A stretch of DNA of 64,000 bases. Origin: Cyanophora paradoxa CCMP329. Lineage: Eukaryota > Plantae > Glaucophyta. This document shows positions 1-22,369 of the stretch, in pieces. A program made the position numbers and the translations under genes. Under the pieces are notes generated by a model that saw nothing but the letters and a program-made list of their open reading frames with translations, ran no database searches and was not told where the DNA came from. Location: NCBI GenBank assembly GCA_004431415.1, contig QPMI01000578.1, forward strand, positions 1 to 64,000, given 5' to 3'. Position 1 is the stretch's first letter. Every line of letters starts with the position of its first letter.

Positions 1-150
1 ATAGGTGGCTATGTTTACCATAGTGGTGAACATGCAGAATTCATTCAGATAATGACAGAAACCTGGTGATAAGGGAACTCACAGTTGAGTTTAAAGATTA
101 CTTTGTGAACTGATTGATATGAATGGAATCGTAATTTTTTCAGTTGGAGT

Positions 151-1703
151 TTATCGAATAAAGGCACCTGTAAAGTCAACTCTCATTGTGGAGCATTCAC
201 ATACACAAGGGGATAAATGCGAATATATTTAATTCTGAGAGAAAACCTATGTAAAAAGCATCCTTGATGCTGAGAGGAAATCCACTCAATAGAGCCACAT
301 CACCTGAGTTTGTGAGCATTGTTAATGTTCTCACAGACATATATTTTGTTTTGCCCATCTGATCGAATAAAAGACCAGTTGATCCCATCAGTGGATGTTG
401 CCACATTGAAAGTCTTAATAAAGCATTGGTGTCCCCTGAACCATAGGCAATAACAGAGGAGAGTTCGAAAGTATATGGGAAAGCAACTTGAAGGTATTCA
501 GTGGGGGTTTTCCCATATCTGCTCAGGAGCATAGGCTCCAGCTTCCAGCCAAATGCTGAAGGTCTAGCCATGAAAGGCTCTTTACCAGTCACAGAGGATG
601 AGGCAGTGAAGCATCATCTGCAAGCTGATACCAATTAGCATCCAAAGGTGGTGATGTAGTGAGAGTGGATGAAATGTAAGCCTTTGAAGGGTTCTTTAGT
701 TCATAGTTTGCTACTAGTAGGCTGCAAAGCTTATTGATTCATATCATTGTTTGCTGCAATGTAGGTTTCTGTGAAAGAAAGCATATCTGGGATTTTAGAA
801 GTGTCATCAAGGGAGCTAACTATATGGTTTGGAAGAGGGACCGATAGCCTATAGTATCTACCATAATCTTGATCATAGTTGTAGGTAACAACTCCTCCAT
901 CTTATCAAGGGCAGAAAGCTCACTTGCAGCCATGAGCATGTTAATCAATGGGCTTCCATCTGTTGAGGCAATCCATGAGAGAATTCCCCAGCTGTTCACA
1001 GTCTCATAAGCATAACCCACATAATCAGACTCTAAATGTGGGTCCACCTCACCACAAGAGATACTTATTACTATTATATCATCATCATCACTGTAAATCT
1101 TCTTTGCATGGCTGTAACCACACACACTGGGATTATTGTTTCCCGAAATGGCACCATCAATGAGACAGACAAATACTCCCCGATTGAAATCAACAATGCT
1201 TACAGGAGAGAAATATGTAGGAGCAGCAGAAGTAGCCCTAGCAGCAATCTTACAAGGCATAAAGTTGTAGTTGTTGTCATTTGTGATAAATATTGGTTTC
1301 ATATTCTGAGTATCAAAGGATGTAATCACAATGTCCTTTAGGGAATCCTGTATTAGTGATTCACCAGTAACTGAATTAATTGCAGTCTCCAAGGGTCCCA
1401 CATCATATTTTGTATTAAAAAGGGCATTTTCGATGATATTTCGAGGATTGCGAAAATCAAGGGCAGTTGAGTTAGGTAAATATTGTGTAAATCGTTTGCT
1501 GTCAGTTTAGGTTCACCTGGTTTATCAGGATGCCTGATATTCAAACCTATTGCAATGATCCCACCAGTGGAAGTTCCACTTACAAGATCCACAAGATCGA
1601 TTACTCTTCTGCCAGTTCGATTTTCGATTTCTTTTAGCAGCCTGGTTATGATAATGCCCCTTGCACCCCCGCCAGAAAGACTTAAAACGACCTTGAGAGG
1701 CAT
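151..1703 (-). pseudogene. Patatin-like phospholipase fused to C-terminal F5/8 type C (discoidin) domain; several frameshifts
   Basis: ORF 1353-1703 has LSLSGGGARG and GTSTG; ORF 820-1401 has ATSAAPTYF, DGA and VISISCG. A shifted frame gives SSLDDTS. Further down: EYLQVAF...SSVIAYG, IKTFNVATSTDGINWSF, KYIRIYP and MRVDFTG before TAA at 151-153, which are discoidin-domain hallmarks. Breaks may be assembly indels. Confidence 0.8.
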
Positions 1704-1746
1704 CTTTTACTTATCAAGAATTTTATAAATCCATATAGTAAAAGCC
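1704..1746. promoter_or_regulatory. 43-bp divergent intergenic region with inverted GTAAAAG motifs (candidate bidirectional viral promoter)
   Basis: CTTTTAC at 1704-1710 directly precedes the patatin ATG (minus strand) and GTAAAAG at 1738-1744 precedes the fibre ATG. The same motif recurs before the ATGs at 8329 and 9198. Confidence 0.5.
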
Positions 1747-4700
1747 ATGAGCTTCAATTACCCACCCAATCTAGAAACCATTCAAGATGATAATGCAAGC
1801 AGCACCAAGCATGTGAACTTTGATAATATTAAAGTAAAGGGTTCAGTTTCGATTGACCACAGCTCTGATAATTCATCAAAGACTCAATCAAGGGAGCATG
1901 CTTTATCTGTGAATCAAACCGATCCAGATAAAGAGGAGGTCAGTGTTGCTTTTAGTTTGGGTAATGTGAAAGCAAACCAAGTGGCAGAGATCAAAGCAAC
2001 AAGAAGGAGACCTAGGAAACTAAAAACCAGTGGCACTCACCCAGATATACCTTCCAGGTTCGATAGTGGTCGATTGATTTTCAATGTTCAAGATGAGCAG
2101 GCAAACAGAACACAGCTTTGCGAATTTACAATGAGGGCAGCACTGCAAAAGCTGAGGTCCCCCAAGTATTGCAAGTGGGTCCCATTGCCAACACAAATCA
2201 GGTCTCCTACACAAATGATGTCTACCCAAAGGATATTACATATGACTTTGCAAGGAATGAGCCTTTTGGGTCTTTACTCCAAAAGATGTCCATCAAAAAA
2301 AGCCATCAATTACAATCAACAGTAGCCCCAGTCAACCAGTAGCAATCCATTTACATCCTGATTTAGTCGAAATGGATAGGCACCTTTTGCCTTTGTATAG
2401 CAATGTGAAAGACCTTGGAATTCGAACCAGGCAATGGCGAAATATCCATGGCAGTAATGTGTATGCAAATGGTGAGAAGCTTGTAAGTGAGAAGACCATA
2501 AGAGAGATCTTTGAGTATTATGGACCTGTCCCAGTTCCCTTCCCTCTTCCATGGGATCCACCGGATTTAACACCAAAGAAGCAGCCTGGAAGAGAATACA
2601 CAGCAACTGAAGATGTAGCCTTTGGGCAGCATATTGTTAGTTGGGAGCAAGTTCGCAATAAACGATAATTGAACCCAGAAAGCAAATAGATGAGCAGTAT
2701 TTACCTCCTGAAGTCGATATTTTAGAGCTTGATGAATATCAATTCGTTCCAGATGAGGAGGAGTATTTACCAGATGGTTTTGACCCACAAGAATATGAAT
2801 ATGATCAGTATGACCCAATGAGGAGGAGATACTACCAGATGGCTTAGATCCTCAAGAGTATGAGTATGAGCAGAACTATGAACCTGATGAGGAGTATTTA
2901 CCAGATGGTCATGATCCACCAGTTGTTGACTATGAGCAACCTTATGAACCCCATGAGGAATTATTACCAGATGGATTTCGACCTGAGATCTGGGAGTTCT
3001 TTCCTGATTATGAACAAATTAATAATAAACCTGCAAAGTATCCCCCAGAGGATCACAATCATGATTGGGATGAGATCTTAGGCAAACCTCAAAAGTATCC
3101 ACCAGAGGATCACAGGCATGATTGGGGTGAAATTGATGGGATACCTACTGAGTTCCCACCAAGCAAACATGAACATATTTGGGATGAGATCAATGACCAA
3201 CCAGAATTTGCAAAGGTAGAGCCTCTTGATAACTTGGGGGTTTCTCTTTACCAGACTTGCAATGTCCCTGAAAGAATCTTTTTGAATGAACACTATGTAC
3301 ATGTGAATGGGACACTTGCGAATTCAGCTATGAGAGGACCACTTCATATTAGGACATTACCAGGCTCTTTTGAAACCCCACCACCACCAGGAGCAACCAT
3401 ACCAAATATCTTTGTGTCAAGCTACATGGAGGCTGACATTCCCACAGATACATTCAGAGTCCCAACAGACCCAGCAACCTACCAAAATTACAACTCTGCT
3501 ATACAGGTTCATGTAGCAGATGTAAGCAGCTTAGATGGCTCAAGACCAATGATAGTATTCAGTCGAGATAAATATTCCTACATTCCCATAGTGGGAACTG
3601 CAAATGATAACTATGGGAGGGCAGAGCTTGCATGGATTAAAACAGATTATGGTGGGGTTCTGGAAGCTAATCAGAGGATGGCTGCAAAAAACATACACAA
3701 TGAGAACATTTCGAGAGTGGTCACAGAGGATTACCTTACTGCAGTAATCCTTGTTAATTTTGTAACCCTTGCTATGCTTGATCAATTTATTACAGAAGCT
3801 GAACTTGCAGCAGAACTATCCAAATATCTCCCTCTTGTGGGTGGGACAATCACAGGAAACCTCACAGTTAATAGTAATATTTACAGCAGCAATATAGTGA
3901 CCAGCAACCTAAAAGTAAATGGAATCCTCACAATTGGCTCTTGCAATTTCAATACCATGAATCAGGTTTACGAAGAATGGTATGATGTCCCGCCAAGCTT
4001 TGATCCAGCATCAAATATCTCGAACTGCATTTTTGCTTGGAAGGCATCAGGAGTACCAGGTCAATCAGCAATGTATACAACTATAGTAAGCAGAGTCCCG
4101 AATTCAGTTGTTCCAGACTTGTTTATCTACGGAGCCAGTTCCTATTACACCAATCCCGAAATCAACAACCAAGTTAGTGTTTCAAGCCCAACAGGCACTT
4201 TTTATGCATATACCTCTGCTACAAGAACTATTGATTTCTCAAATGGGCTTACATTTTTCTTTGTGGGAAAATATCATCCAACTGCCTCTTCTATGCAAGT
4301 TCATTTGAGACTTTACAGAAGCACCTTTCCATCACGATATTGTTATTATGGGGCAACATCTTCTACTGCTATTGGAATGAACCAGTTTACTATTAATGGA
4401 GTATCCCAAAACCGCCCAGTTATTACGGTTCCTTCTTTAATAAATACATGGTATTACACTGACCAAACAATTACTTCCAGCAGCTACACAGTCGGGTTAA
4501 ATGGAGTAGATATTCAAACACTTGTAGGAACAAATTATCTACCAGATAATACTGTCAATCATTTCGGATTTGGTAATATTGTGAATGGTGGTATTTCCGA
4601 GTTGATTGTTTTCAATAGGGCTTTGACAACTTCTGAAAAGAATGCTGTGAGGTATTACATTCAACAAAAATATGGATTCACTCATACCCAGACTCTGAAT

Positions 4701-7700
4701 ATTTACAGAGGATTAAAAATAACCTCACCTGATACTGTAATAGATTACCTTACAGTTACAAGCAATGCAAATTTACCACATCATCCAACCTCTAATGTGG
4801 TTCAAGGTTGGATTCAAAATCACACTCACACAAAAGCCCAGATTACAGATTTTGCCCATACTCACACAAAAGATCAGATCACAGATTTCGCCCACACTCA
4901 TTTATGGGCAGACCTCACAGACAAACCGCTGACTTTTGCTCCTTCTGCGCATACTCACACAAAGTCAGAGATAACAGACTTTGCACACACTCATTTATGG
5001 GCAGACCTCACCGATAAACCATTAACGTTTGCTCCTTCTGCGCACACTCACACAAAGTCTCAAATTACAGATTTCGCCCATTCTCATACGAAGTCAGAGA
5101 TAACAGATTTCGCCCACACTCATTTATGGGCAGACCTCACTGATAAACCGCTCACGTTTACTCCTTCTGCGCACACTCACACAAAGTCTCAAATAACAGA
5201 TTTCGCCCATACTCATTTATGGGCAGACCTCACTGATAAACCGCTCACGTTTACTCCTTCTGCGCACACTCACACGAAGTCTCAAATTACAGATTTCGCC
5301 CATTCTCACACAAAGTCAGAGATAACAGATTTTGCACACACCCATTTATGGGCAGATCTCACAGACAAACCGCTCACGTTTACTCCTTCTGCGCACACTC
5401 ACACAAAGTCTCAAATTACAGATTTCGCCCATTCTCACACAAAGTCAGAGATTACAGATTTTGCACACACCCATTTATGGGCAGATCTCACAGACAAACC
5501 GCTCACGTTTACTCCTTCTGCGCACACTCACACAAAGTCTCAAATTACAGATTTCGCCCATTCTCATACAAAGTCAGAGATAACAGACTTTGCCCACACT
5601 CATTTATGGAATGACATCACAGACAAACCATCAACGTTTGCCCCTTCTGCGCACACTCATGATTACTTGCCTCTCACAGGAGGAACAATTTCCTCAAATC
5701 TTACGATTTCATCCAACTTGAATGTTATAGGAAAAATTCAAATTGGAGACAAAAATACAAACATTGATGTATACTATGACGCACCCTATTATCCTGTTAC
5801 TTCTAATACAGACCCCGCTTTTGCCATACCAGATTGCCTCTTAACAATAAGATTAGATGTTGTCCCTGTCGGCATAAACATCAGTCACGCCTTTATTGCA
5901 AATAGAGCAACTACGGCAATTCCCTTTATTTCCGGGGTAACCTTCCCATGGTCAGGATACAACACAATAACTCAATTGAGATCTGATTACAATAACCGAA
6001 ACATTGCCCAACAACCTACTTATTCATATACAAGCCGGGAATTTGGAATGCCGTATCCCGTAACTGTGGATTGGTCAAAAGGTATCACCATCTTCTTTGC
6101 AGGTTCTTATAGATTTTGGGGACCGTGGGTAGATCTCTTAAATTTTAGTTCACCAGATGGAACTAATAAAGTATCCTTTGGGACAACAGGTAGCAGTATG
6201 GGTATACATTCTTATACAAGCAATGGTGTGACTTACCCAGCAGCACACTTAAATTATCCCACATCGTATTCTGAGTTGTCGCCGAATCATTGGGACTTTA
6301 CAGTTTCTTCAAATGTCTGCACTTTCGGATTTAACGGACAAGATTTAGGCACAGTCATTACAGAAGTGGATTATCTTCCACCTTCCACTTTTAGTAGGAT
6401 GGGTGTTGCCTATTTCATTACGGCAGTAGGGGAATATATTATATTCAACAGAGCATTGACATTTGATGAAAGGCAAAAAGTGAGATATTATATGCAAGAT
6501 TATTTTGGCTTTCCAAAAAAGCAAACAATCGTTATTCCTGATAATCTACGCATTTCTGCTGAAAATGTTCATATTAGAAATTTAATCGTTTCTTCAAATG
6601 CAAGCATTCCAAACTATACCACATCAAATGTGGTTCAAGGTTGGATACAGAACCACACACCTGCGTGGTCAAATATCACAGACAAACCGTTAACGTTTGC
6701 TCCTGATGTTCATACTCACACAAAAGACCAAATATCAGACTTTTCCCATTCTCATTTATGGAATGACATCACAGACAAACCGTTAACCTTTGCTCCTGCT
6801 GCTCACTCTCATTTATGGGCGGACATCACAGACAAACCATTAACATTTGCACCTGCTGCTCACTCTCATTTATGGGCGGACATCACAGACAAACCATTAA
6901 CATTTGCACCTGCTGCTCATACTCATGATTGGATAGGTATTACAAATAAACCTTTGCTGTTTCCGCCCGATGCTCATACACACCCTTGGAGTAGTATAAC
7001 AGAAAAACCATTAACATTTCCGGCAACAGCTCACACTCATTTATGGAATGATATTACAGACAAACCAACATTTGCAACTGTTGCGACAACCGGAAATTAT
7101 GATGATTTAATTAACAAGCCAACATACACAGCGCCCACAAATTTTGACGCTACAAGTATTATTTCCACAGATCGCACAGGTGATTGGAGAAATTACAACG
7201 GAGGAATATTGACAGGGGACACAAATACTTGGGCGAACACATGGGCTGCTTCTGATGAAGATTGTAGTAGCTGTAAAATGTATTGGAATGTCCCAACAGG
7301 AATGAAATCTTGTTATATCTATTATGCTTGTCATTACAATTGTAGATACTTTGATGTGGTGGGAATTTATCCTCCAACAACTGTGTATACATATTTACGA
7401 GTAAATGCCTATTCTACTGCAATCGACCCATCAAAGGAATTCAAACAGTATGTTGGAATAAATTGTGAAGGACTAACCAAAGTTGGTGTTCATGGACAGA
7501 AAGGAAGAATTTATTTACCCGGTCCAATTGCTGTTGGATGGAGCAAAAACCCTGCTGTAACTTCACACAGTGGTTACTGTCATTGGGATAATATCTTCGG
7601 AAAACCAACAGCTTCAACATCTGTCGGTCCTCACTCACACAGCAAAGCAGATATCACAGATTTTGCACATACTCACACAAAGGCAAATATTACAGATTTT

Positions 7701-8279
7701 GCCCATACTCACACTAAATCAGAAATCTCAGATTTGCCTTCTTTTGATCCATTCACAGCCAATACGATCACAGCAAATAATACTATGTATGTAGGATCGG
7801 GTTCAATAGTAACTCCTGCATCACCCACAAACCAAGAAACATGGTTCTTCCACAATTCCGCAAACTTTTATGATAAAACACTGCTCTGTCGTGGAAATGC
7901 TTATGCAAGAGCATTTTATGCGATGAATGCAGGAACCACAAACACAATCAGCCAAGTTCCATCTTGGTATGATATAGAAAGACGTTTCAAATCAGGAAAA
8001 TATCAAGCCACAAGTGGTGTTATAAGCGCGGGTCAAACAACACAGCATGCATATGTTTTATATTGGGACCCACCTTTTTACACTCAGACACCTGTTGTAA
8101 ATGCCACACTTCAAGGAACTCCTGCAACAAACCCAGGGGATGTAGATTTTAGAATTGGAATCTCAAACTCCACAGCTAACTACACAACAATCTATGTGAC
8201 ATTCATAGCATCCCCTACTCTATCTGAAAGTCGAAGTATTACTTGCACAATCCATTGGACAGCATATGGAATCCCATAA
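1747..8279 (+). CDS. Giant fibre / receptor-binding-like virion protein (HxH tail-fibre repeats, two LamG/ConA-like domains, C-terminal H-type-lectin-like domain); 5' part frameshifted
   Basis: The frame of ORF 3234-8279 stays open upstream to ~2820 (EEILPDGLDPQEYE...KYPPEDHNHDWDEI). Fragments 1747-2325, 2118-2342 and 2372-2668 join by single-base shifts. Motifs: LLPLYSNVKDLGIRTRQWRNIH, YLPLxGGTI, HTHTKSQITDFA / HTHLWADLTDKPLTFAPSA repeats, two ExIxFNRALTxxExxxVRYY modules, terminal TPVVNAT...IHWTAYG. Confidence 0.8.
4820..5660 (+). repeat. Coding tandem array of 36-bp (12 aa) and 57-bp (19 aa) His-rich units within the fibre gene
   Basis: Near-identical units CACACTCACACAAAGTCTCAAATTACAGATTTCGCC and CATTTATGGGCAGACCTCAC...AAACCGCTCACGTTTACTCCTTCTGCG. 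A second, more diverged array lies at ~6650-7070 and a short third at ~7630-7730. Confidence 0.9.
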
Positions 8280-8328
8280 TAAATGCATATTTCGCATTAT
8301 TTTTCTTTCCTTCTTAGTAAAAGAAGCA

Positions 8329-9174
8329 ATGGGTGAATATAATCGAGTTCAACTGCCTATATATTCCCTTGGATCCCCTGCAATGCATTTTCGCCAGCAT
8401 GAAGTAAATGATGAGGTTCGTGGTTTAGAATCCACAGAGAGACCCAATTCCAATGGTAACTCCTTTGATAAAAATTCGATTATTCGAGTAAAAGAGCTGA
8501 GAGCTGATAAGAATTCTGGTGTGGTTAAAACAACTCGACTTCTTGTCACCAATGCTAACTTCTTCCAGCCTACAAATGGAGGTCCTGATGCTTACAGTGT
8601 TGCCCTGAAAGCCCTAGATTTCGACAAGAATACTGCTGCTGTTACTGTGAGATCAGGAGGAGCATTTATTGGGGGTGGCTGTCGAATTTCAGGTCAGCTT
8701 TCATCCTCAATTTCGTATAATGATGTCCCAGATACTCTAGAGCAAAATGTAGAAGACCCCCAACGAATTCGATTATATACTCCTGTTGCACAGCAGCCAT
8801 TAATTCAATTTTACATTGGATATACTGTTACTCTTGAAAACTCGGAATTAATTGAAGGAACCAAAAGAGTACTGAGAGGTCTTGCGATTCCATCTGCAAT
8901 GCTTTCCCTTTGTAGAGCCAACAACAATCAAGTAGGTCATAAATACTATTTCAATGTTCAGGGATATAATCATTTCGGTTATGGCTACTGTGTTTATAAT
9001 AATAATTTCACCTTTGACTTGTTTGTTACAGATATTGGGTTATATACTATAACTCTTATCGGTTTGAGAACAGATATAGCCGCTGTATCAGCTCTTAGAG
9101 GTGTAACTCCTGATACTCTTTCAGTTACAGGGTTTTACATGGAGCCAGATGTAATTGATGACCCAACCCCATAA
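8329..9174 (+). CDS. Hypothetical viral protein, fibre-accessory/structural-like (paralogue 1)
   Basis: Intact ORF; ATG 8329 preferred because it does not overlap the fibre gene and follows GTAAAAG. Shares ELRxDKNxGxVKTTxLLVTNANF and SGGAxIGxGxR with the next gene. Confidence 0.7.
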   Translation: MGEYNRVQLPIYSLGSPAMHFRQHEVNDEVRGLESTERPNSNGNSFDKNSIIRVKELRADKNSGVVKTTRLLVTNANFFQPTNGGPDAYSVALKALDFDKNTAAVTVRSGGAFIGGGCRISGQLSSSISYNDVPDTLEQNVEDPQRIRLYTPVAQQPLIQFYIGYTVTLENSELIEGTKRVLRGLAIPSAMLSLCRANNNQVGHKYYFNVQGYNHFGYGYCVYNNNFTFDLFVTDIGLYTITLIGLRTDIAAVSALRGVTPDTLSVTGFYMEPDVIDDPTP

Positions 9175-9197
9175 AAGATATATCCCTTTAATGTAAA

Positions 9198-10030
9198 ATG
9201 GCTGAGCAACCCCCACTTGAACGAATTATTACACCTCAACTATCATTAGCTGCCCCAGCAAACCATGTTTTACAGCATGCTACCTTTGATGATGTAGAGG
9301 GTCTCCAATCCACAGAGGTCCAACCTACAATGAACACCTTTGGTTCCACCACAAACTGAGATTACAGGAACTCAGATGTGATAAAAATAATGGAATAGTT
9401 AAGACAACTAAGCTACTTGTCACAAATGCAAACTTTTCTGCTCATTATGGAGACCCAGATAGCTATGGAGATCCTCTGTCTACTTATTCTTTTGAATCTA
9501 GGTCGGGAGCTATTAACTGCAAATCGGGGGGAGCATATATTGGGGATGGTCTTAGGGTTGGTGGGGCTGTTGGAGCGCCTTTATTTGTGAATGATCAACC
9601 CAATCCTATTGATCCCAATACAAGAATTCGAACCTATGTCCCCAGCATGAATGCCCCATACATTATAAAGATATTCCCCATTGTTGTAAATGAACAAACA
9701 GCAGTAGTAGACTCTCTTGTTGAAATTGGTGACCACTACAAGGTAGTTGTGGATATCCCACCAGATGTATATGCTGTATGTCAAGTAGAGGGTGGAACTC
9801 CTAATTTTGCAGTTGTGATCACCCCATATGATAATTTTGGTATTGCTTATCATGGAGTCAATTTCGGTTTGGAAGACTATCAGTTTCTGGTGAGAGCCAC
9901 CAAGTTTGGTATCTACAAGTGTGTATTATATGCTGAGAGAACCGATTTTATTGCAAGGCAGAATACCTATGCTGAGTATTATGGCACAAATCGATATTTC
10001 CCCATTTTTGGACAGGATACTGCTCCATAA
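9198..10030 (+). CDS. Hypothetical viral protein (paralogue 2), frameshifted near 9350-9390
   Basis: MAEQPPLERIITPQL...VEGLQSTE...LQELRCDK...VKTTKLLVTNANF...KSGGAYIGDGLRVGG runs into ORF 9587-10030 (ends YAERTD...) and aligns by eye with 8329-9174. Confidence 0.68.
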
Positions 10031-10052
10031 GAATATTGGTTATATATAGAGT

Positions 10053-10325
10053 ATGGATAGTAAAACAAAAAAGTTTATTGATGCTGCTATGACAGTTCAT
10101 GGTAAAGATAAATTCGATTACAGTGAGACACATTACATCAAAGCTCAAGAGAAAGTATCTGTGAGATGTTTGCAGTGTAATAAGGTGATCCTTACCTATC
10201 CCTTTAATCATGTGAAGGGATCAGGTTGCAGGGACTGTAACAAAAGAAAGAGTCAAGCACACAGGAAAAGAGCTACTTCATCAATCAGAGTAGAGTATAG
10301 GGATATTTGCATTAGGTTTGACTAG
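10053..10325 (+). CDS. DUF723-like Zn-ribbon protein (type associated with homing endonucleases of large DNA viruses and phages)
   Basis: KFIDAAMTVHGKDKFDYSETHY...KVSVRCLQC...PFNHVKGSGCRDC pattern, basic C-terminus, no nuclease domain. Confidence 0.7.
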   Translation: MDSKTKKFIDAAMTVHGKDKFDYSETHYIKAQEKVSVRCLQCNKVILTYPFNHVKGSGCRDCNKRKSQAHRKRATSSIRVEYRDICIRFD

Positions 10326-10348
10326 TTAATTTTTCTAAGGTATTCTTA

Positions 10349-10747
10349 ATGGAGACTAAATACAGAGGCTTTCATGTTATGCTTGATTACAAGGCTAAAT
10401 CAGCTATAGCAACAGGTTATGAGCATGTTAGCTTCCTAGGTAATTGGATTATGGGAACCCTTGAACAAGCTATACTGAGACAAGGTATTAGGATTGTTCA
10501 TAAACACTGTGAGATATTTGATGGCAAAGTATCACCTCCTGGGTTTGCATTAGTTCTGCTCTTAGATGAAAGCCATTGCACAGCTCATTGTTATTCCAAT
10601 GAAGGCATGTTAGCAATTGATATATTCAGTTGTGGTAAAGAAGCTCAGCATAAAACACAATCTGTTGCAGATGAGATCGATAAAACAATGAATTTCCTCA
10701 CATTTGAGAAGACTGAGAGACATAAACATGATAGATTCCCGTTTTGA
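10349..10747 (+). CDS. speD: Prokaryote-type pyruvoyl-dependent S-adenosylmethionine decarboxylase proenzyme (SpeD/SpeH family)
   Basis: GFHVMLD, F...PPGFALVLLLDESHCTAHCY..EGMLAIDIFSCG: ESH self-cleavage site and DxFxCG motif; 132 aa. Confidence 0.88.
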   Translation: METKYRGFHVMLDYKAKSAIATGYEHVSFLGNWIMGTLEQAILRQGIRIVHKHCEIFDGKVSPPGFALVLLLDESHCTAHCYSNEGMLAIDIFSCGKEAQHKTQSVADEIDKTMNFLTFEKTERHKHDRFPF

Positions 10748-11179
10748 TGGGTTTCTATAATGAATTTCTAAAGGATTCCTTTGTTTTCTAACAATAACAT
10801 TGATAAGCTACTGTAACAAAAAGATATAATATATCCTTTCACTACAGTAGCTTTATACAATGATTATTTTCCGGATTCCGGACATTTTTTACGATAGAAT
10901 TCTATTTTAAGTAATTGGAATAATGTTCGATTTCATTACAGTAAAATTCAACATTCCCCTAGATTCCCCCTATTACCCTATTATTTAAGTGGACTCAAGG
11001 TTGACTCATATTAATCGTAAAAGTAGTAAAAGTATATGGATTTTGTTACGAATTCAATGCAAGGGTTGACTAAGTGGGTTGAGTTGACTCAAATTTCACA
11101 GGAAATAACAATGAATCAGAGTATAAATGCATTTTTTGAATCAACTACACCAACTAACACTGAGATTTTAACAATATAT

Positions 11180-11477
11180 GAGATCCTTACTGAATATGGT
11201 AAGTGTCACAGGTGTCACAGGTCTATCCCAAAGTTTCTCCTATAAAGAGTAAATTTTCAAAAGTTTGGGATGGACCTGTGACACCTGTGACACTCGATTA
11301 TTTAATTTGTTTATTCAATTAGAAATACATAGATAAGATTATTACTGAGTTTTCATTATAAAAGAGATCCTTACTGAATATGGTATGTGTCACAGGTGTC
11401 ACAGGTCTATCCCAAAGTTTCTCCTATAAAGAGTGAATTTCCAAAAGTTTGGGATGGACCTGTGACACCTGTGACAC
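11180..11477. repeat. Two direct copies (11180-11293, 11364-11477; period 184 bp) of a palindromic origin-like unit
   Basis: Each copy has GTGTCACAGGTGTCACAGGTCTATCCCAAA, an AT-rich spacer, then TTTGGGATGGACCTGTGACACCTGTGACAC: a 30-bp stem with one mismatch. Confidence 0.92.
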
Positions 11478-11730
11478 CCAATTATTCATTAAATTCTTAA
11501 GGGACCCCCTTAGACTCAATAAAACATGATAAAAACATATCAATTTCATGTATAATTACGATTGGATTCAATAAGAGATCTATTTGTTTAATTAAACAAA
11601 TGAATCTCATATAGATATTAATCGAGTTAAGCGATATGTTTCCGATTAAATGAATTAAATTTAATTAAATTTAATCGAGAAAGTACATGAATATAATATC
11701 GATTAAATCAATTAACTTTTAGACCAATCA

Positions 11731-12011
11731 CACATAGTAAAATGCGGAGTTTTAACCAGAGGCAAGATCTAATTGAGATTCAGTTATATTATTCGGAAAT
11801 ATATAGAGATTATCGATAGACTCAGTAAGACTAATCGGAAAATAAGAGAAATTTACGATAAAATATCGAAAAGAATACAAAATAATCGAAATAATTGAAT
11901 ATTCGATAAGATATACACAGATTATCGATTGATTGAAATAGAATATACGAGATATATCAACAAAATCAATTAAGATAAGCCGAGGGTTAAAACTCCGCAT
12001 TTTACTATGTG
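11731..12011. repeat. Terminal foldback: perfect 27-bp inverted repeat enclosing an A-rich imperfect palindrome
   Basis: CACATAGTAAAATGCGGAGTTTTAACC (11731-11757) and GGTTAAAACTCCGCATTTTACTATGTG (11985-12011). Inner arms keep register with matches GGC, TAATTGA, TCG, ATCGATA, GTA and ATCG. Confidence 0.92.
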
Positions 12012-13544
12012 TTACGGTGTGGCCCTACACCTTCATCTAACCCTGCGAGATTTAACAGGCCGTCCAGGCGGCCAGTCGGTCAAGAACGTGGATCAGCTCA
12101 AGTACCTGTTCCCCGACCAGGACAACGACCTGAACGGCGCCGAGAGCCCGATGCTCGAGTGGACTGACATGGATCTGAGCCTCTACGGCTTCAAGGACGC
12201 GATCATCTACTGGCCCAAGGTGTCCTACCACGGCGGGGCAGGCCAGAAAGCTGACAGTAAGCTTGAGGCCATCTCTTGATCGTGATTCTTTTCGGAAAAG
12301 GTCTAATGCGGCCCGCGCGCGCCTTGCAGAGTACAACATCACCCTCTTCCGTTACATTCGCGGCGCGAACGGCTACGCCCCCGACAAGTACCAGAACTTC
12401 TACGTACGTTCTGATTCGGTGTAGCTCCGTCGCTGCCTGCGATCAAGTTCTCACAAGTTCCGTTAGGTGGCCGGCACCGTCGACGGCGACGTGAACTTTG
12501 CGTACGCGACCAACATCCAGCCCTCGCACTGCGTACGTATACGCCCCATGCCTAGGCCTTTCCATACTATAGGCTATAGATATATATTGCTAGTGGCGCC
12601 CGAACCCTCGGCGATAAACTTATATGAGTCGTATTAGTACTAGTGATGCCCTATCCCTCCCTGACTTTCCTTGCCAGTACGGGATGGGGCTCAAGCTCTG
12701 CAACTCGGTCGGCTGCTGCTCCCCCAGCAGCAATCCGCTCGAGAGCAGCGTCCCCTTCACCACGGAAGACGGCAAAGTCCTGGCCCCCATCGGTGACTCC
12801 ACCTGGTTCCAGCCGTGTACGCCCGGCCCATCCTCCCGCGCTCCTTGCTCTCCCGCTTAAGCTTGGCACTGACGCCTCCACGTCGACCGCAGCCCAGAAC
12901 TACGCGAACAAGAACTCGCGGGAGCCGACCGACCGCGGGTACTGCGTGGCCATCAAGCCCATCGGCGTCGTCACCAAGTCGCTCGTCGGCGCCGTCGACT
13001 TCAGCGGTGTCCCGGCCGAGGCCGCCACCACTACCGGTACCGCCGGCTCGGCCGCCCGCTCCGCCTCGACCGCCTCGTCCTCGGGCACCTCCAACACACT
13101 CCTCGCCGTCGCCATCGGTTCGCGCCGGCCTCTCAGATATCGTTTAACACTGCATTAGTAATCCGTGCCCGTTTCTTACCGCCCCGTCTCCTCGCAGCCG
13201 TCCCCGTCGGCATTGCGGGCCTCGCCATCGGCGCCGTGCTCGCCGCGATGGTCATCACCCGCAACCAGGTCCGCGCCGCGACCATGGCCGCCGTTAGCGC
13301 CGGCAGCCGCGGCCAGACCCTGGTGCGCGATTTCGATCCGTGCACGTGTTAACGTTTCTCCTCGTTCTTTTCTGAACGCCCCCCGCAGAACATCCAACCG
13401 GCCTCGAACGCCTCGTTCGACCCGCACCCGCGCCCGGCCTCAAATGTCATGCTCATGGGCTCCGAGGAGTCGGCCCACACGCATGGGCACGAGTCCGCCA
13501 ACATGCGGCACCGCGAGGCGGCCGCCCCCGAGTTCGACGTGTAA
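12012..13544 (+). pseudogene. 3' half of a host FN3-family type I membrane protein gene interrupted by the viral element
   Basis: Exon-by-exon paralogue of ~25051-26403 (GGQSVKxVDQLK, YGFKDAxxYWPK, YNITLFRYIRGANGYAPDKYQ, TM AVPVGIAGLAIGAVLAAMVIT, end PEFDV*). Begins 5 nt before a GT donor. Confidence 0.88.
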
Positions 13545-14049
13545 ACCGCGCGCGCCCGCAATTCTTGAAGCAAGTAGCCTTTGACAGTTGACCTATAGCT
13601 ATTAGAACGATCGCGTAGCGATCAAATTTTAGGCCGCGCGCGTAGTTCTGCGTTAGTTTTCTAGATCGCGATCGGCACGCCCAGCTGCCGGCAGGCAGCT
13701 CACGTCCTGTCACGGTCCTGATCAGGCCGCTCATGATCGATATCAGCACTGCACTCTCTGTCAACAATCGATCTAATCATAACAATCATGTGTCTGCAGT
13801 TTATAATCAGAAGCTCTACATGTAGCAGAGTATATGTCCATTGCTCGCAGCCCTAGTTGCAATCTCTTAATTATAAAACGGGGCCCTACCCCGCCTACGG
13901 TACCGGTACTAGTGCTCGGATTGAATACAACATGAACAGTGGGACGTCGACTTGCCTGGGCATCTCCCAGGCCTAGGTCTATCATAGTATCGTTGCTGGC
14001 ATGGTAGGGCCGGGACCTACTCTAATAAATGCTTACTAACTATAGCCGG

Positions 14050-14299
14050 CCGGGTCCGGGGATTCCGTGGGGGGGAGGGGGTCGGGTGGGGTGGATTATA
14101 ATTAAAGGGGCGGGGGGGTCCGGTGGGGAGGGGGGGGGGGGGGGGGGGCGGGGCGGGAGGGGGCGAGGGGGGCCGGGGTTGGCTTAAGCTTGGACAGGTC
14201 CAGGCGCCGGCCTAGGGTGAGGGGGGTCATGGGCACGGCCTGGAGGGGGGTCGTGTGGGGGCATGCGCATGCACGGACAGCGGGCGTGGAGGGGGGGGG

Positions 14300-14330
<31 letters not shown>

Positions 14331-14520
14331 GGGGCGGGTTTGCATGGGGGTGGCCATGGGGCCGGGGAGACTGGGGAGACTTAGGGGGGGGGGGGGGGGG
14401 GGGGGGGCATCACGCAGGGTGGGGAGGGGTGGGGAGGGAAAGAGAGGGAAGGTGCGCGGGCGGGCCAAGTCTTAGGGTCAAAGAAAAAAAAGGGGTGGGG
14501 CCCCAGGGACCCCGGCCCGC
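14050..14520. repeat. G-rich low-complexity tract (poly-G runs, GA microsatellite)
   Basis: Multiple G runs longer than 10 nt and (GA)n at ~14300-14320. Confidence 0.8.
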
Positions 14521-14825
14521 CGGGCCCGGGGTCCCTGGGGCCTCGTAGGCCTGGGCCGACCGGAGGGGGAGTCGAGACGGGCTTTCAAGTTTGGGCGGGT
14601 CATTGTACTGCAGAAATATATCGATATATATCAAGCATCTGGGGGTTCGAATGACAAGAGCTCATGGAGAATGAACCCAGGCCAGGTGGACAATCTGGGG
14701 GTCCATGTGTAGCACAGCAGGGCCGGCCAGCGGCGCCGGCTCTCCGGGATCCAGAGCCTGAAATGACGTTCTCAACATCATCTGAAGGTTTTTATCTGAG
14801 TTACTAGGTCTTCGACTTGCGGATA

Positions 14826-14946
14826 AATGAATTCGCACACACCGAGACAAGTGGCTAGAGATATAACTGAGGTGTCCATCTGTGTCAAGTCGAGAGATGA
14901 GCCTACGGGACTAAGCCTTTCGGACATCGGACCGGGTGGAGCTCGG
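14826..14946. repeat. Dispersed repeat, copy 1 (probable transposable element fragment)
   Basis: AATGAATTCGCACACACCGAGACAA...GGAGCTCGG is near-identical to 58568-58688. Confidence 0.85.
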
Positions 14947-15654
14947 ATGTGGAAATAACTGGAGAAGCTACCCCGGGGATTAATTCTAGAGCTGCAGTAC
15001 AAGAAAGATCCTACGCGGGGAGGGGAGTGACTACCCAAGGACGAGGATAGAGATCAGGGGTGGACAGCGAAGTGAGCTGCAGCTGTAGCTATGCCTAGTA
15101 AGCTAGGGCCTCCGGGAAGGCGCACTATAATCTAAACCACTCTGTACACGCTAGAGTACGGCCCGCCGTGTCGCCGGCACGGCGGGCACGGGCTCAGCGG
15201 CTGGGGGCTCGCTCGTCCAGGAGCGGGCCTGATGGAGCCGCCGGGCTCAGAGTATCGGGAAAGGTGTGGTCGGGGAAGAGGGGGACGGGGGGTACGGAGT
15301 GGAAGGGCGTGGGGCGGTGGGGAGTGGCGGGAAGGGACCGGGTCGGGAGGCCGCGGTCGGGAGGAGGGAGGTTCCAGTGGCGCGTTCCGCCGGGCTTCCA
15401 GCCGCCCGCCGGCCGCCTCCCCCCCGCCGCGGGCAATGACGAGCCCCCCTCCGCGGCGGTCTGACCGCCCCGGCCTGGCTCGTGGCCGGGGCGGGTGCAG
15501 GTGGGTTCAGCGGCCGACAGACGACCTTCCGTCCGGCAGCCCGCACCACCGTCCCCTCCCTGGTGTAGCGGGGGATCAGCACAATGGGCAGAGGCGGAAG
15601 GGGTGAAGGGTGGGGTCGTGATTAGACCCCTCCTTGCACATCCTGAGACGAGCA

Positions 15655-17070
15655 GCGCGGCGCGCCTCCGGGATCCGCCCCGCCCGGCGAGCCGCGCCGC
15701 CGCCCGCGGCGCCTCCGCCCGCCCGGCGAGCCGCGCCGCCGCCCCCGCGCCTCCGCCCCGCCCTGCGAGCCGCGCCTCCGCCCCGCCCGGCGAGCCGCGC
15801 CACCGCCCGCCGCGCCTCCGCCCCGTCCCGCGAGCCGCGCCTCCGCCCGCCGCACGCCTCCGCCCCGCCCGGCGAGCCGCGCCGCCGCCCGCCGCGCCTC
15901 CGCCCCGCCCGGCGAGCCGCGCCGCCGCCCGCCGCGCCTCCGCCCCGCCCCGCGAGCCGCGCCGCCGCCCGCCGCGCCTCCGCCCCGCCCGGCGAGCCGC
16001 GCCGCCGCCCGCCGCGCCTCCGCCCCGCCCGGCGAGCCGCGCCGCCGCCCGCCGCGCCTCCGCCCCGCCCGGCGAGCCGCGCCGCCGCCTGCCGCGCCTC
16101 CGCCCCGCCCGGCGAGCCGCGCCGCCGCCCGCGGCGCCTCCGCCCCGCCCGGCGAGCCGCGCCGCCGCCCGCGGCGCCTCCGCCCCGCCCGGCAAGCCGC
16201 GCCGCCGCCCGCCGCGCCTCCGCCCCGCCCGGCGAGCCGCGCCTCCGCCCCGCCCGGCGAACCGCGCCGCCGCCCGCCGCGCCTCCGCCCCGTCCCGCGA
16301 GCCGCGCCGCCGCCCGCCGCGCGCCTCCGCCCCGCCCGGCGAACCGCGCCGCCGCCCGCCGCGCCTCCGCCCCGTCCCGCGAGCCGCGCCTCCGCCCGCC
16401 GCGCCTCCGCCCCGCCCGGCGAACCGCGCCGCCGCCCGCCGCGCGCCTCCGCCCCGCCCGGCGAGCCGCGCCGCCGCCCGCCGCGCGCCTCCGCCCCGCC
16501 CGGCGAGCCGCGCCGCCGCCCGCCGCGCGCCTCCGCCCCGCCCGGCGAGCCGCGCCGCCGCCTGCCGCGCCTCCGCCCCGCCCGGCGAGCCGCGCCTCCG
16601 CCCCGCCCGGCGAGCCGCGCCACCGCCCGCCGCGCCTCCGCCCCGTCCCGCGAGTCCCGCCGCCGCCCGCCGCGCGCCTCCGCCCTGCCCGGCGAGCCGC
16701 GCCGCCGCCTGCCGCGCCTCCGCCCCGCCCGGCGAGCCGCGCCGCCGCCCGCGGCACCTCCGCCCCGCCCGGCGAGCCGCGCCGCCGCCCGCCGCGCCTC
16801 CGCCCCGCCCGGCGAGCCGCGCCTCCGCCCCGCCCGGCGAGCCGCGCCACCGCCCGCCGCACCCTCGCCCCGCCCGGCGAGCTGCGCGCCGCCCGCCGCG
16901 CCTCCGCCCCGCCCGGCGAGCCGCGCCTCCGCCCCGCCCGGCGAGCCGCGCCACCGCCCGCCGCACCCTCGCCCCGCCCGGCGAGCTGCGCGCCGCCCGC
17001 CGCACCCTCGCCCCGCCCGGCGAGCTGCGCGCCGCTCGCCGCACCCTCGCCCCGCCCGGCGAGCCGCGCC
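15655..17070. repeat. GC-rich minisatellite, 40-bp core unit
   Basis: CGCCCCGCCCGGCGAGCCGCGCCGCCGCCCGCCGCGCCTC tandemly repeated with shortened and +2 variants. Confidence 0.93.
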
Positions 17071-18185
17071 ACAGCCTATCGCGCCCGCCCTGCCCAGCGA
17101 GTCATGTGGCCGCACGCCGCGCCGACAAGCCAAGCCGCCCTCCAAGCCAAGCCAAGCCAAGCTGCCCGCTGCGCGCCCCCGTCAAACGAGCCGCGCGCAA
17201 CCACCCCCTATGTTTTCCCGTTTGACCAACCAAACAACCGAGTCGCACCGATGCTCGCCGCGCTCCGCCCGGCCCGCCGAGGTGCGCAGACGTCGACGCG
17301 CCCCGCCGTTGCCGCAGAGCCGCGCGGCCGCGCGCGCCGCCGCGGCGCCCCAGTCCGCGCCGTTTGCCCGGCCCGTTTTGTTGTTGCATTTCAAAAGTTT
17401 GCCCCTCGCCATGGCCACCCTGTGCGCCGTACGTATACGTGGCGCACTGCGCGCGGCAGCGTGGCCCATGCTACCGGCCCGGGTAGCCGCGGCCGCGGCC
17501 GGCACCCGCCGCGGCGCCGCTCCGATCCACGGGCCGCGATAGCAAGGCCTAGTAGCTATAGGACTCCGAAGGCAAGGATCCTCACGCGGGATACAGCAAA
17601 AAGAGACGACGGCGGGGTATAATATAACGATGCCAGCCAACGGAAACAGACCGATTTGCAATTGCGAACTGGCCACTGTGGCCAGTGGCCACTGGCCAGT
17701 GGCCAGCTCGAGTGCAAATTGCCGGCTCGATCGAGCCGGGCTCGAGCCGGCACCCCTGGAGTCGCGACTCGCGAGCCGGCTCGAGCCGGCTCGCGAGCAG
17801 GCTCGATGTAATATTTGATACTGGAGAACGAGTCACTGAGTTATAATTTAGTATACGTACAGGAAAATAAGTATAGTACTTCACCAAATTAAAATGCCAC
17901 TAGCTACCTTTAATTAGCAGCTGGTAATTATAAGTCTTGCAATTGACATGTACATATGTACATGTACGTATACAGGGCTTTTGTTATGGCGGAAAGTCTA
18001 CTACCCGGACTAATATTAATAGGCTTTAGCAGGCGGGAAATATTTAGTAGATCGCCCAAGTATACGAACGTTCAATTGCAACGGTTAGATCGCCCAAGTA
18101 TACTAGTACGTACAAGCAGGGGGGGCTCCGCCCCCCCCGCACCCCCCCCGCTTGCTAGCTGGGTACAACCGTACAGGCGGTACAG

Positions 18186-18437
18186 CACAGCTCGTTTTTT
18201 TCCCCAATCGACTCGACATGCCCGTTGTATGGGCAAGGGCAGCGCTAGCCGGTGATCACGATAACTTTTCACCCGCTTTGAGCCGGCTAGTGCGCCAACG
18301 TCAGCGTGCACGTAGCCGGCAAGCTACCGGGTAGATTAGTGCTAGCCCGGTCCCAGCTAGCCGAAGAGCGATTTCATTTTAACCGGTTTTCAGCCTGTTG
18401 GGTGAACTTGGGTCGACCGGTAAAAAAACGAGCTGTG
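18186..18437. mobile_element. MITE with CACAG termini and 2-bp TSD (CACTA/CMC-like)
   Basis: TIR CACAGCTCGTTTTTTT / AAAAAAACGAGCTGTG; AG on both flanks. Confidence 0.72.
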
Positions 18438-18460
18438 AGCTATATATATATAAGTCCATG

Positions 18461-18633
18461 GATTTAAATTGACCAATCACGAAATCGCTCGAGTTTCCGA
18501 CTGGGGCTTTTTGACTCGACTCGCCGTAGTAAGCAGTTTTAACGTACCCGGCCTTATTGATTCAAATTGTCCAATCACCAAATCGCCCGAGTTCCAGACT
18601 GAAGCTTTTTGACTCGACTCGCTGTAGTAAACG
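18461..18633. repeat. Diverged direct repeat, 2 copies, period ~98 bp
   Basis: GATT(T/C)AAATTG(A/T)CCAATCAC..AAATCGC.CGAGTT..GACTG..GCTTTTTGACTCGACTCGC.GTAGTAA occurs twice. Confidence 0.7.
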
Positions 18634-19000
18634 ATTGGTGTTTTCCGCCAGCGAAAGGGTCCCCTGGGTACACGAAACCACAGTACTATGCGGGCTGGAA
18701 CCGCTTGTTTTTTTACTACTCAACAAATGAATTGTACAAATACACCATTGGGCAAGGTTTCCAGTGGCATTTTTTTGCTTCTCCAAGCTCAGACCAGCCG
18801 TAGTTCGCAGGTCCCAAATGTCAAATTTGGCAGCAAAAGGTAAGCGGCGTTTGCCGAGTTGCAATTTCCCAGCCTGGCCTGGTACTGTGGTGAAAAGGTA
18901 CTACAGTTCATTGTACTACTGTTACGTACGCCGGATTAGGCAAGGAATCACCCCTGCCGTAACATCCGGGCCAGCACATATGAGGCGTCCTCGCCGAATC

Positions 19001-19448
19001 CACAGCGGAACGGCGTTGTATGGCGCCCTATACGCTGAAGGAAAAAAGTCTTCTATGTAAATCGTTAACTTAAATCGTGTGTTCGCGTTACTGCAAAACT
19101 GGGCGAACTCGACTTGAACTTTGACGTACCCCCCTTTTGGACTTGGTCGCGGCGCCGCGCGGCGCAACGAGCTCGCTGAGCATGCATCAACCAGTGCCAC
19201 CATGCATAGAAGTTGAAGATCAATCATTGAACGCATCATAGACGCGTTGGCCGGCGGCTCCGATCCTACGTTTGGACGTTCTGTCTAACAGAAGTTCGAA
19301 CTACTTTTTTTCCAACGGCTTCCGACTTCTTCCCCCCCGTTAATTTTCCAAGTTGAATATGTTTCAAATATATATTAAGCTCTAATAGACTTGACTTGAA
19401 AAATTAAACTTGAGCGTATAGGGCGCCATACAACGCCGTTCCGCTGTG
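19001..19448. mobile_element. MITE with 36-bp perfect TIRs, CACAG termini, 3-bp TSD (CACTA/CMC-like)
   Basis: CACAGCGGAACGGCGTTGTATGGCGCCCTATACGCT (19001-19036) and its exact reverse complement (19413-19448); ATC on both flanks. Confidence 0.88.
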
Positions 19449-21093
19449 ATCGTGCTTCGGACGAAGTCCGGAATTCTCCCACGCGGGTTCGAAGCCATGT
19501 CCGTTCGCACTACCCGGGCCCTGCCGGGAGTCGAACCATGGCCCACGTGCGTTCAACGGTTTAACGGAATCCGGATTCGGAATCCGGATCCCCGGCGATT
19601 CGAATTCCCCGCGCGCTCTGCATGAGACTCGAGCTCCTCTGACAGCATCTGACTCAGGCTCTGAGTCTCTGACTCAGTGAGAATCGAACCCCGGATCCCG
19701 GATGAATTCGAATTCGAACCCCATATAAGGCTGGCCGGCTGGCCAGCCTGGCCGACCAAGCCCCGGAGTCCTAGCGCTAGCATGCGCAAGACTTGAAGAG
19801 GCTGGCCGCCAGCTGGCCGGCCAAGTTTTGGCTGGAGGCTGGCGGCCAGCCCCGGGCCATGGCCAGCAGCGGCCGAACTTTGGCGGCTTGGGCTAGCGCG
19901 ACCCCCCCGGGCCCCGGCCAGTGCCCCCGGTGCCCCGCCGGCCGAGCTCGTACAAAAAGACGGTATATATATGATCATGCCATATGCATGATGATCACTG
20001 TAGTATGATCATGATCATGATGGCCCGCAGCGCGAGCGCGAACCGCTAACGCGAACCGCCAACTTGCGGCCAACCACGTCACAGACTCATGACTCAGTGA
20101 TCACCGTGCGCGCATGCCCGGCCCTCACGGAGTCACCGTGGCACGGGACTCTAGATCTGTGACGGGACTCGGGAGTCACGTGGCCCCTCAGTGGCCTCAC
20201 CGTGACATACTATACTGTAGGAACGCTTAAATTGCCGTGGTGAAAATACAGCCGGTAGATTGCCGTAGGAACGCTTAAATGCGGCACCAAATTAATGCGT
20301 TTTGAAGTCTTTTGGCTGCATGTGGGGGGTACAAACTGCAGTTTATTAGCGTTTCAATATTAATGCGCCCCCAAATTAATGCGTTTTGACGGCAGAAAAC
20401 GTGTGAAGCGAATTCGGCAATTTAAGTCCTCGGCAATTTATAATTTAAAGACCATTCGCGATCGACAGCGCCGCGGCGATCGCGATTCGACGCGTCCCCG
20501 GATTTCGCTGAAAAATCGCGTCCCTTCGATCGATCGAAGGATAAATTTTCAAAGTTTAAAGAGGCGAGCTCGCGAAGTCGATCAATCGAATTCTCATAAT
20601 CATCATATATACACAAATTAATATTTCATATATATAATCATCCGGCCGTGTGAATTCGAACAGTTTAGCTATATATAGTTAACGTGCATGGAAATTAATC
20701 TTTGGTTTCCTTAATTTGGAAATTGGAATTTCAGCTCGAGAGTCGAGACTTTGCGAGTCCGACCGTCCGCAGCCGGGGCAAGCATATCATACAGAGGGTT
20801 TATATGGGGGACCATATGCATTGGGGGTCTAATAATATTAATTGGGCGGATCCGGAATCACGCCGCGGCGCGCCGCCGTCGACGCGCCGCCGTCGATCGA
20901 CGTCGACGCGCCGCCGGGCGCCGTCCGACGGTCGCCGGCGCCCGCCGTCGATTCGCGAGTCGGCGCCGACCGTGGGACCGTCGCCGAGTCGACCCGACGG
21001 TCCGACGGTCGAACCGTCCCGTGCCGACTCCCGGAGTCCCGGTCCTCCCGGACTCGAGCTCCCGGCCGGCCCGGCGGAGTCCCGGGTCCCGAC

Positions 21094-21599
21094 CAGTGTT
21101 GCTGAAATTTTATTATCCCAAAACGCCCTGTAAATTTTCAGTAAACTTTCGAAAACTTTCAGCAAATATTTTCACCCATACAAAGTTTACTTGCACAGCG
21201 AAAGTGACACGTTTCTCTGCAGAGAAGCCTCTAGACACGAGCGATATGTGTTAGGATGTCATCGACAACCTTTGTATTACAAGTGCACGATGTGCAGATG
21301 TATCTTTGCCGTTCTTTTCACGTTGAGGAGGGGGGTACGGTTCCTGAGAGATGCATACTCTGGTCTCTTGACACCAGCAGAGACCGCCAGAATGTGTCCA
21401 GGCCTCCATAGTCTCGTATTTCGACGGATTTGACCCTCGTTTATGGCGTGAAACGCCCCCAGAATGGCATCTTCAAGGGTACCCCCCTTGCAAATTTATT
21501 GAAAGTTTTCATTGCTCATTTTGGAGGTGAAAATTTACTGAAAATTTACATGAAAATTTTCAAGTTGAAAGTTTGGAAAGTGAAAGTTTAGCATCACTG
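21094..21599. mobile_element. Non-autonomous hAT-like element
   Basis: TIR CAGTGTTGCTGAA / TTTAGCATCACTG, subterminal TGAAAATTT repeats, exact 8-bp TSD GTCCCGAC. Confidence 0.88.
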
Positions 21600-21628
21600 G
21601 TCCCGACTCCCGACTCCCGACTCCCGAG

Positions 21629-22164: not shown

Positions 22165-22369
22165 CTCCCGAGTCCCGACTCCCGAGTCCGACCGTCCGAC
22201 CGTCGGACGGTCGGACCGTCGGACGGTCCTGCGGACCTTAAAGCCCACGCCGTGTGACGGTCTGCCCACTGCCCAGTGCCCAGTGCCCAGTGCCCACCCC
22301 TACTAGTACTTGGAGTCCCCGGACTCGCGATCGGCGGCCTCGCGATCGGAGGCTCGGACGGTCGGACTA

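Follow-up and report, generated by a model that had tools for sequence, protein, structure and literature searches.

A probable Polinton-like virus of the glaucophyte type ends in a long fold-back within a host exon

Introduction

The endogenous Polinton-like viruses (PLVs) of Cyanophora paradoxa are low-GC, many-copy insertions (PMC10120064 Tables S2, S4; PMC12220804). They carry S-adenosylmethionine decarboxylase (AdoMetDC), lipase or patatin, discoidin, a PTR fibre and endonuclease-type cargo, and their frameshifts are often assembly artefacts (PMC10120064; PMC12220804). Here we describe an element that resembles them in composition, copy number and cargo. It is the right-hand 12-kb portion of an endogenous DNA virus present in many copies, likely a PLV, and occupies positions 1-12012 of a 64,000-nt stretch of DNA (the window), its left end lying before the window. 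The explanation that we prefer as a whole, with a probability of roughly 0.75, is a many-copy PLV whose fold-back end came to lie in a host exon by a recent insertion through a retroviral-type (rve) integrase and whose replication would involve hairpin priming.

Palindromic ends have been reported from other protists. In Halocafeteria seosinensis, virophages of subtypes 1, 2, 5 and 6 and a PLV of subtype 4 have, like our element, a palindrome at the extreme end adjoining host DNA. The Halocafeteria palindromes are tight and ~52 nt long, whereas that of our element extends over 283 bp, its arms pairing perfectly for 28 bp around a long interior with weak pairing; unlike those elements, ours also has a separate twin origin-like repeat ~250 bp further in (bioRxiv 10.64898/2026.07.28.741278). 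According to the same source palindromes lie within terminal inverted repeats (TIRs) and adjoin target-site duplications (TSDs) in four virophage subtypes and one PLV subtype, and terminal palindromes accompany rve integrases and non-pPolB replicases. The EMALEs and mavirus of Cafeteria burkhardae share with the element an AT-rich sequence in a GC-rich host and frequent exonic insertion, 13 of 22 classified insertion sites of endogenous virophages being exonic; they integrate via rve, with TIRs of 0.2-2.3 kb, and differ in their virophage capsid class and in that terminal palindromes are not mentioned in the available text (PMC8547959).

In entomopoxvirus-associated PLVs, which use tyrosine recombinases, the inverted repeats of an 'end module' are proposed as origin for the primase-helicases (PMC11296320). 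Phage inverted-iteron origins beside D5/VapE (SF3) genes resemble the element in having TGTCACA-NN-TGTCACA arms inverted around an AT-rich core; unlike them, the unit of the element is doubled and has no adjoining helicase gene. Polintons/Mavericks (Polintoviricetes) are viruses that integrate into host DNA and have terminal inverted repeats. The presence of pPolB together with an rve integrase defines them, and they usually have AG..CT ends, which the ...CTATGTG(T) end of our element does not match.

Results and discussion

The element ends inside a host exon

The GC content is 38.8% in 1-12011 and 66.1% in 12012-64000, with the best change point at 12014, in agreement with the earlier reading of the DNA from its letters only (the sequence-only reading), by which an AT-rich stretch stops at 12011. 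The GC step and contig depth delimit the element, the terminus of which reads ...CTATGTG at 12011 and is followed by host TTACG (12012-12016). Since T12012 also extends the perfect arm of the terminal fold-back, the last base of the element is either 12011 or 12012 and the boundary is uncertain by one base. Beyond TTACG the interrupted gene continues with a 51-nt GT..CAG intron (12017-12067) and then GCGGCCAGTCGG; the counterpart in a paralogue is TTATG (25051-25055), a 56-nt intron (25056-25111) and then GTGGCCAGTCGG. A match of 4/5 together with a GT within ±10 nt of the expected position has a chance of ~0.02, so the 4/5 match of the remnant is thin by itself and consistent with an exonic junction.

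The 3' half of the interrupted host gene (12012-13544, forward strand) comprises the 5-nt exon remnant, seven GT..AG introns and ~326 open codons, which likely include a transmembrane segment. It is identical to the paralogue in 225 of 327 aligned columns and contains no internal stop or frameshift. The intact paralogue (23012-26403, forward strand) serves as a model of the empty site, the junction corresponding to ~25051. Because the remnant is in frame with the downstream exons, the seven introns are canonical, ~326 codons are open and identity to the paralogue extends over 225 of 327 columns, the insertion is exonic and probably young. It amounts to a probably recent knockout of a host gene for a predicted membrane protein. 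Integration had been described as precise to the base; the paralogue alignment upholds a clean junction inside an exon, while its precision extends to within one base, owing to T12012. The end was also said to fit neither the AG..CT nor the TG..CA pattern, and ...CTATGTG(T) indeed fits neither; these are the usual ends of Polintons and of retroviral-type integration, respectively, and our literature search found no paper making AG..CT or TG..CA ends a requirement for PLVs.

Sequencing runs contain the same junction. Fourteen listed runs contain at least half of the sampled words from 10500-13500; we examined three DNA runs among these (X1, X3 and X5) and one small-share run, X16. A junction contig (11986-12356) is present in all three DNA runs at depths of 101 (X1), 99 (X3) and 42 (X5), neighbouring host contigs having depths of 101-103, 82-96 and 29-32, respectively. 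The junction is at single-copy host depth, and the contig joins the element tip to the exon, not all 12 kb. An assembly chimera at the junction, or a contaminant as source of the AT-rich part, could explain why no contig bridges the junction by a 31-letter rule, and many single-base indels relative to run contigs do point to poor assembly quality in the element. We nevertheless hold this to be highly improbable: the junction contig recurs at host depth in 3/3 DNA runs, the break coincides with the fold-back tip and is in frame with the exon remnant, and the terminal 21-mer is without match in prokaryote genomes or metagenomes.

Contigs of the element reach ~3.5-92 times host depth in the three DNA runs and exist in many variants; contig depth does not equal copy number, and a many-copy family is the plain reading of it. 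Within the window several genes of the element contain frameshifts, many of which fall at sites where run contigs differ by one base. As these indels are read differently by many contigs, and as frameshifts of this type frequently arise during assembly where viral insertions have a high copy number (PMC10120064), decay of the element is not established. The fibre core (3737-7939) is much shallower than the genes on both sides, which suggests that copies have the flanking genes in common but exchange fibre variants. Depths of identical element contigs in X1 exceed those in X3 by a factor of 2-6, while host contigs have equal depth in both; this may reflect a difference between the cultures in copy number or in free virus, or else unequal GC bias of the libraries. 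No RNA run is among the runs listed for 10500-13500, and X16 contains low-depth element-like contigs without host flank, which say nothing on expression.

Gene content matches published glaucophyte PLVs

For 156 glaucophyte PLVs, Table S6 of PMC12220804 gives AdoMet_dc in 66, lipases in 89, the A32 ATPase in 139, rve in 85, pPolB in 49, D5_N in 40 and tyrosine recombinase in none. Of the 19 eukaryote rows listed in that table, 15 have no AdoMet_dc, which otherwise occurs only in three cryptophytes. In glaucophyte and rhizarian PLVs discoidin is found alone, paired with patatin or fused to it, and PTR repeats are described in a glaucophyte PLV (PMC12220804). A glaucophyte assembly gave 366 capsid hits in two clusters, corresponding to ~7% of the assembly (PMC10120064 Table S4), a load in line with the contig depth of our element.

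The cargo typical of this group, AdoMetDC, patatin with discoidin and a PTR fibre, is present in full in the window. At 183-1703 on the reverse strand a discoidin (F5/8 type C) piece follows a patatin phospholipase, the two likely being one fused gene that lies in pieces in the window. PF01734 (patatin) is matched at 1356-1703 (E 5e-11) and at 820-1302 (E 2.5e-4), and no relatives of the patatin were found among the viral contigs searched. The piece at 303-497 matches PF00754 (E 0.023) as well as neuropilin-1 and lactadherin (E ~0.001), discoidin-domain proteins forming the top 22 of its 26 PDB matches; the piece at 200-613 gave no meaningful match. On the forward strand, 3330-8279 encodes an open fibre protein of 1649 amino acids with phage-tail repeats (PTR, PF12789, E 2e-9) and lectin-like segments, which matches tail and tail-fibre families of PHROGs. 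The AdoMetDC family protein (10349-10747, forward strand; PF02675, E 5e-11) has 10 homologues with 42-61% identity.

The element differs from its host in GC content and exists in many divergent copies, both of which are features of the glaucophyte PLVs. It very probably is a PLV of the reported glaucophyte family, to which its cargo, depth and GC contrast as well as the probable type of host conform; the match is one of gene content, the core genes presumably lying outside the window.

The stretch might alternatively be the edge of a larger insertion of a Nucleocytoviricota member or a mirusvirus with hairpin telomeres. Patatin, AdoMetDC and fibres presumably occur in large viruses too. Giant-virus insertions have been reported in a glaucophyte (PMC12344493), and telomeres of the poxvirus type are hairpins, rich in AT and incompletely paired (PMC11296320). 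Such an origin is nonetheless very unlikely, as there are tens of divergent copies per genome, the cargo combination fits the PLV set, and the 12 kb contain no core gene of nucleocytoplasmic large DNA viruses, mirusviruses or the HK97 type.

The terminal fold-back

The terminal foldback, already seen by the sequence-only reading, is a unit of 283 bp (11730-12012) in which 11730-11757 pairs perfectly with 11985-12012 over 28 bp, with 227 nt between these arms; inwards of them lie another, imperfect stem and an A-rich interior with weak pairing. The fold of 11725-12016 has a z-score of -10.2 and was equalled by 0 of 200 shuffles. For the 227-nt interior alone, the self-alignment score was reached by 0 of 300 shuffles and the fold energy by 6 of 100, so that the fold signal resides mostly in the outer stem. 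The terminal motifs had no matches in viral, metagenome and prokaryote collections, and the terminal 1.2 kb had none among 50,697 phage records. Further inside, at 11559-11624, lies an imperfect AT-rich subterminal hairpin with 33-nt arms that are 76% complementary.

Perfect inverted ends of 27-28 bp around a non-coding interior would also suit a separate miniature DNA transposon of 281-283 bp that landed at the PLV tip, or whose transposase made the junction. Its CAC..GTG ends would presumably be Transib/CACTA-like, and CACATAG may resemble an RSS or Transib end; other inverted-repeat units are present in the nearby host spacer (e.g. 19001-19448), and a 19-mer of the arms is confined to these two arms within the window. 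On the other hand, no TSD of 2-10 nt flanks the unit, its interior is AT-rich and ATCGA-rich with short repeats and thereby resembles 11500-11729 inside the element, and depth remains high across it. We regard a transposon at the tip as quite unlikely and treat the fold-back as the end of the PLV itself.

Twin palindromes as a candidate origin

Two 137-nt direct repeats with 93% identity (11166-11486) each contain a palindrome, at 11202-11294 and 11387-11477, with arms of 34-35 bp that are 94% complementary. The arm motif is TGTCACA-NN-TGTCACA, inverted around an AT-rich core, and the pair is a candidate origin for an SF3 primase-helicase. A search of viral contigs with a generalised pattern of the twin palindromes gave 17 loci on 15 contigs. 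A D5- or VapE-type helicase gene is situated ≤100 nt from the motif in 6/17 loci, and an AAA_25 gene overlaps the motif in one; the crude chance of helicase adjacency is ~1% per locus. The origin-like nature of the pair, which had been proposed before, is thus in keeping with both the complementarity of the arms and the vicinity of helicase genes.

Two of the phage contigs each carry the origin-like palindrome twice, ~36 kb apart (L087/L096 and L095/L100), and on these only one copy adjoins the primase-helicase gene. In another viral contig, L001, which is unrelated to the element, a D5 helicase gene is located beside AdoMetDC and fibre-like open reading frames (ORFs); positions 1195-12184 of this 16-kb contig hold the D5 primase-helicase, AdoMetDC, the fibre-like ORFs and a kinase-like ORF. 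By eye L001 appears PLV-like, and it shows independently that a small virus can carry AdoMetDC. A metagenome match to the origin arm was dropped as an ordinary bacterial contig without an inverted partner, and sub-threshold miRNA-type Rfam matches on the palindromes were rejected as hairpin artefacts.

A possible route of replication and integration

In the mechanism that we propose, the capsid, packaging ATPase, integrase and replicase genes would be located upstream of the window, and the region from ~10.8 or 11.1 kb to 12012 would be the right TIR. Fibre, spikes and patatin-discoidin would serve attachment and entry. The free genome would be linear, the twin palindromes loading a D5/SF3 primase-helicase, and its 3' end would fold back to prime synthesis or to complete the end. 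The opened and fully copied end would then be the substrate of the integrase, leaving the whole palindrome at the junction. Insertion was probably carried out by the element's own rve integrase and was likely recent; hairpin priming combined with an SF3 origin is tentative, with odds slightly below even.

Hairpin priming has been proposed for the Halocafeteria palindromes, with accidental annealing as the authors' alternative (bioRxiv 10.64898/2026.07.28.741278). In keeping with the latter, the fold-back may be functionless, having arisen once by template switching at the TIR end and been inherited by sister copies; the weakly paired interior would be compatible with this. However, similar ends recur in other protists (bioRxiv 10.64898/2026.07.28.741278), and the perfect pairing of the outer 28 bp contrasts with a diverged interior, suggesting upkeep of the arms by selection or copying. 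A fold-back without function is therefore rather unlikely in our view. A more far-reaching scenario, an active PLV with rolling-hairpin replication from a long, incompletely paired telomere, a doubled phage-type SF3 origin in the TIR, an opened hairpin integrated whole by rve with non-canonical CAC..GTG ends, and amplification that differs between cultures, is equally doubtful; if it were true, 11758-11984 should occur in flip and flop orientations among the copies.

Several points weigh against the PLV with hairpin priming and rve-mediated insertion that we favour. The window contains no capsid, ATPase, integrase or replicase, so PLV membership rests on accessory genes, and accessory genes move between virus groups. 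The published glaucophyte PLVs were compared by gene content, not by sequence, and Laminin_G_3, to which the fibre protein has a sub-threshold hit (E 0.058), occurs in 0/156 of them (PMC12220804). DDE integrases usually pair with pPolB, which speaks somewhat against rve together with SF3 (bioRxiv 10.64898/2026.10.13.758929), and pPolB, which needs no hairpin, is present in 49/156 glaucophyte PLVs (PMC12220804). As to the end itself, it is CAC..GTG or ACA..TGT rather than the usual AG..CT or TG..CA, and its perfect arms are separated by 227 nt with a weakly paired interior, the published palindromes being ~52 nt long and screened with a gap of ≤10 nt. Ten of the 17 motif loci had no match to any helicase query tried, though in four of these a gene for DNA polymerase A lies ≤2.5 kb away, and the six helicase-positive loci are partly related and phage-like by their neighbours. 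Finally, the junction contig holds 26 element letters, fewer than the 31 that the bridging rule asks for, and the source sample may be among the runs or they may stem from one campaign, their independence from the source being uncertain.

Relation to published systems

The sequence-only reading had envisaged an integrating DNA virus of an alga, which the clean exonic junction, the terminal fold-back and the origin-like palindromes bear out. It had called this virus not assignable, a view at odds with the match of its cargo to published glaucophyte PLVs (PMC12220804; PMC10120064 Table S4), and the best candidate for an undescribed system, a label that is not supported, since the virus family, terminal palindromes beside a TSD and exonic insertion are already in print. 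For the same reason the surprise is small. Apparently not in print are the 283-bp fold-back with its 28-bp perfect arms and the twin palindromes resembling SF3-adjacent motifs: we found no printed account of glaucophyte PLV termini or of a doubled origin, subscription journals and external datasets not being searchable, and preprint supplements or figures and external sets of endogenous viral elements may show such ends.

How PLVs without pPolB replicate their ends and hand them over to the integrase is a question addressed in a recent preprint (bioRxiv 10.64898/2026.07.28.741278). The present copy supplies exact candidate sequences for an origin as well as for a priming fold-back. Its family numbers hundreds of copies in an alga that is likely culturable; therefore flip-flop, covariation and linkage to the replicase are testable in existing long reads.

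Further genes of the element

Pfam and PHROGs searches of the 12 kb found no capsid, packaging ATPase, polymerase or integrase. Frameshifted ORFs with acidic and H-x-H/W repeats at 1747-3329 (forward strand), with tandem repeats at 2753-3161, had no Pfam match and would form the N-terminal part of the fibre gene. Downstream of the fibre gene lie two spike- or fibre-like ORFs on the forward strand, paralogue 1 (ORF 8329; 8266-9174) and paralogue 2 (9198-10030, broken near 9350 in the window), assigned by its likeness to the first (32% identity, E 3e-30). Paralogue 1 had five matches among 1.84 billion representative sequences, two of which combine the same N-terminal half with a C1q head at the end. 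These proteins form a small spike-like family (8329-10030; P0028-P0031) with a common N-terminal half, for which no Pfam family was found, and differing C-terminal heads. ORF 8329 had no relatives in the viral contigs, by sequence or alignment query, or in a word-based protein search, and two Atlas searches returned only unnamed clusters. Its fold models are of low confidence (pLDDT 33.5 from the single sequence, 43.5 from six sequences), and Foldseek tail-protein matches of the six-sequence model, with a template-modelling score <0.3, were not used; judging from the models, ORF 8329 looks fibre-like rather than penton-like.

A 90-amino-acid zinc-finger domain of a type found in HNH/endonuclease proteins is encoded at 10053-10325 on the forward strand (PHROGs 681, 4605 and 559, E 3e-9 to 3e-8). 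Just after the AdoMetDC gene, a hairpin with 24-bp arms (10805-10853) is a possible transcription end signal. The genes of the element (1-10750) have a CpG ratio of 0.36, with TpG at 1.26 and CpA at 1.39, whereas the terminal region of the element has a CpG ratio of 0.9 and the host one of 1.1; the low ratio fits methylation and also native composition.

Host surroundings

The sequence-only reading had named the interrupted host gene an FN3 gene. This label is not confirmed, the single paralogue exon scanned (24494-24772) being without a Pfam match. A host GT4 glycosyltransferase gene (32938-35486, forward strand; PF13439) is of cyanobacterial affinity: among its best 80 prokaryotic loci, 78 have cyanobacterial names and two are 'uncultured bacterium'. 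These best matches indicate that the host is a primary-plastid alga. The enzyme is likely DgdA, a plastid-derived lipid enzyme, although NCBIfam yielded no model for DgdA. A glaucophyte is reported to encode dgdA (PMC4742570), and on this basis the host may be a glaucophyte.

Between the two paralogues, 13600-23000 is a gene-poor spacer with inverted-repeat units at 19001-19448, 22553-22627 and 17654-17719, a 75-nt direct repeat (18458/18556) and a repeat array of 93% GC at ~15.6-17.1 kb. The segment 14826-14946 recurs at 58568-58688.

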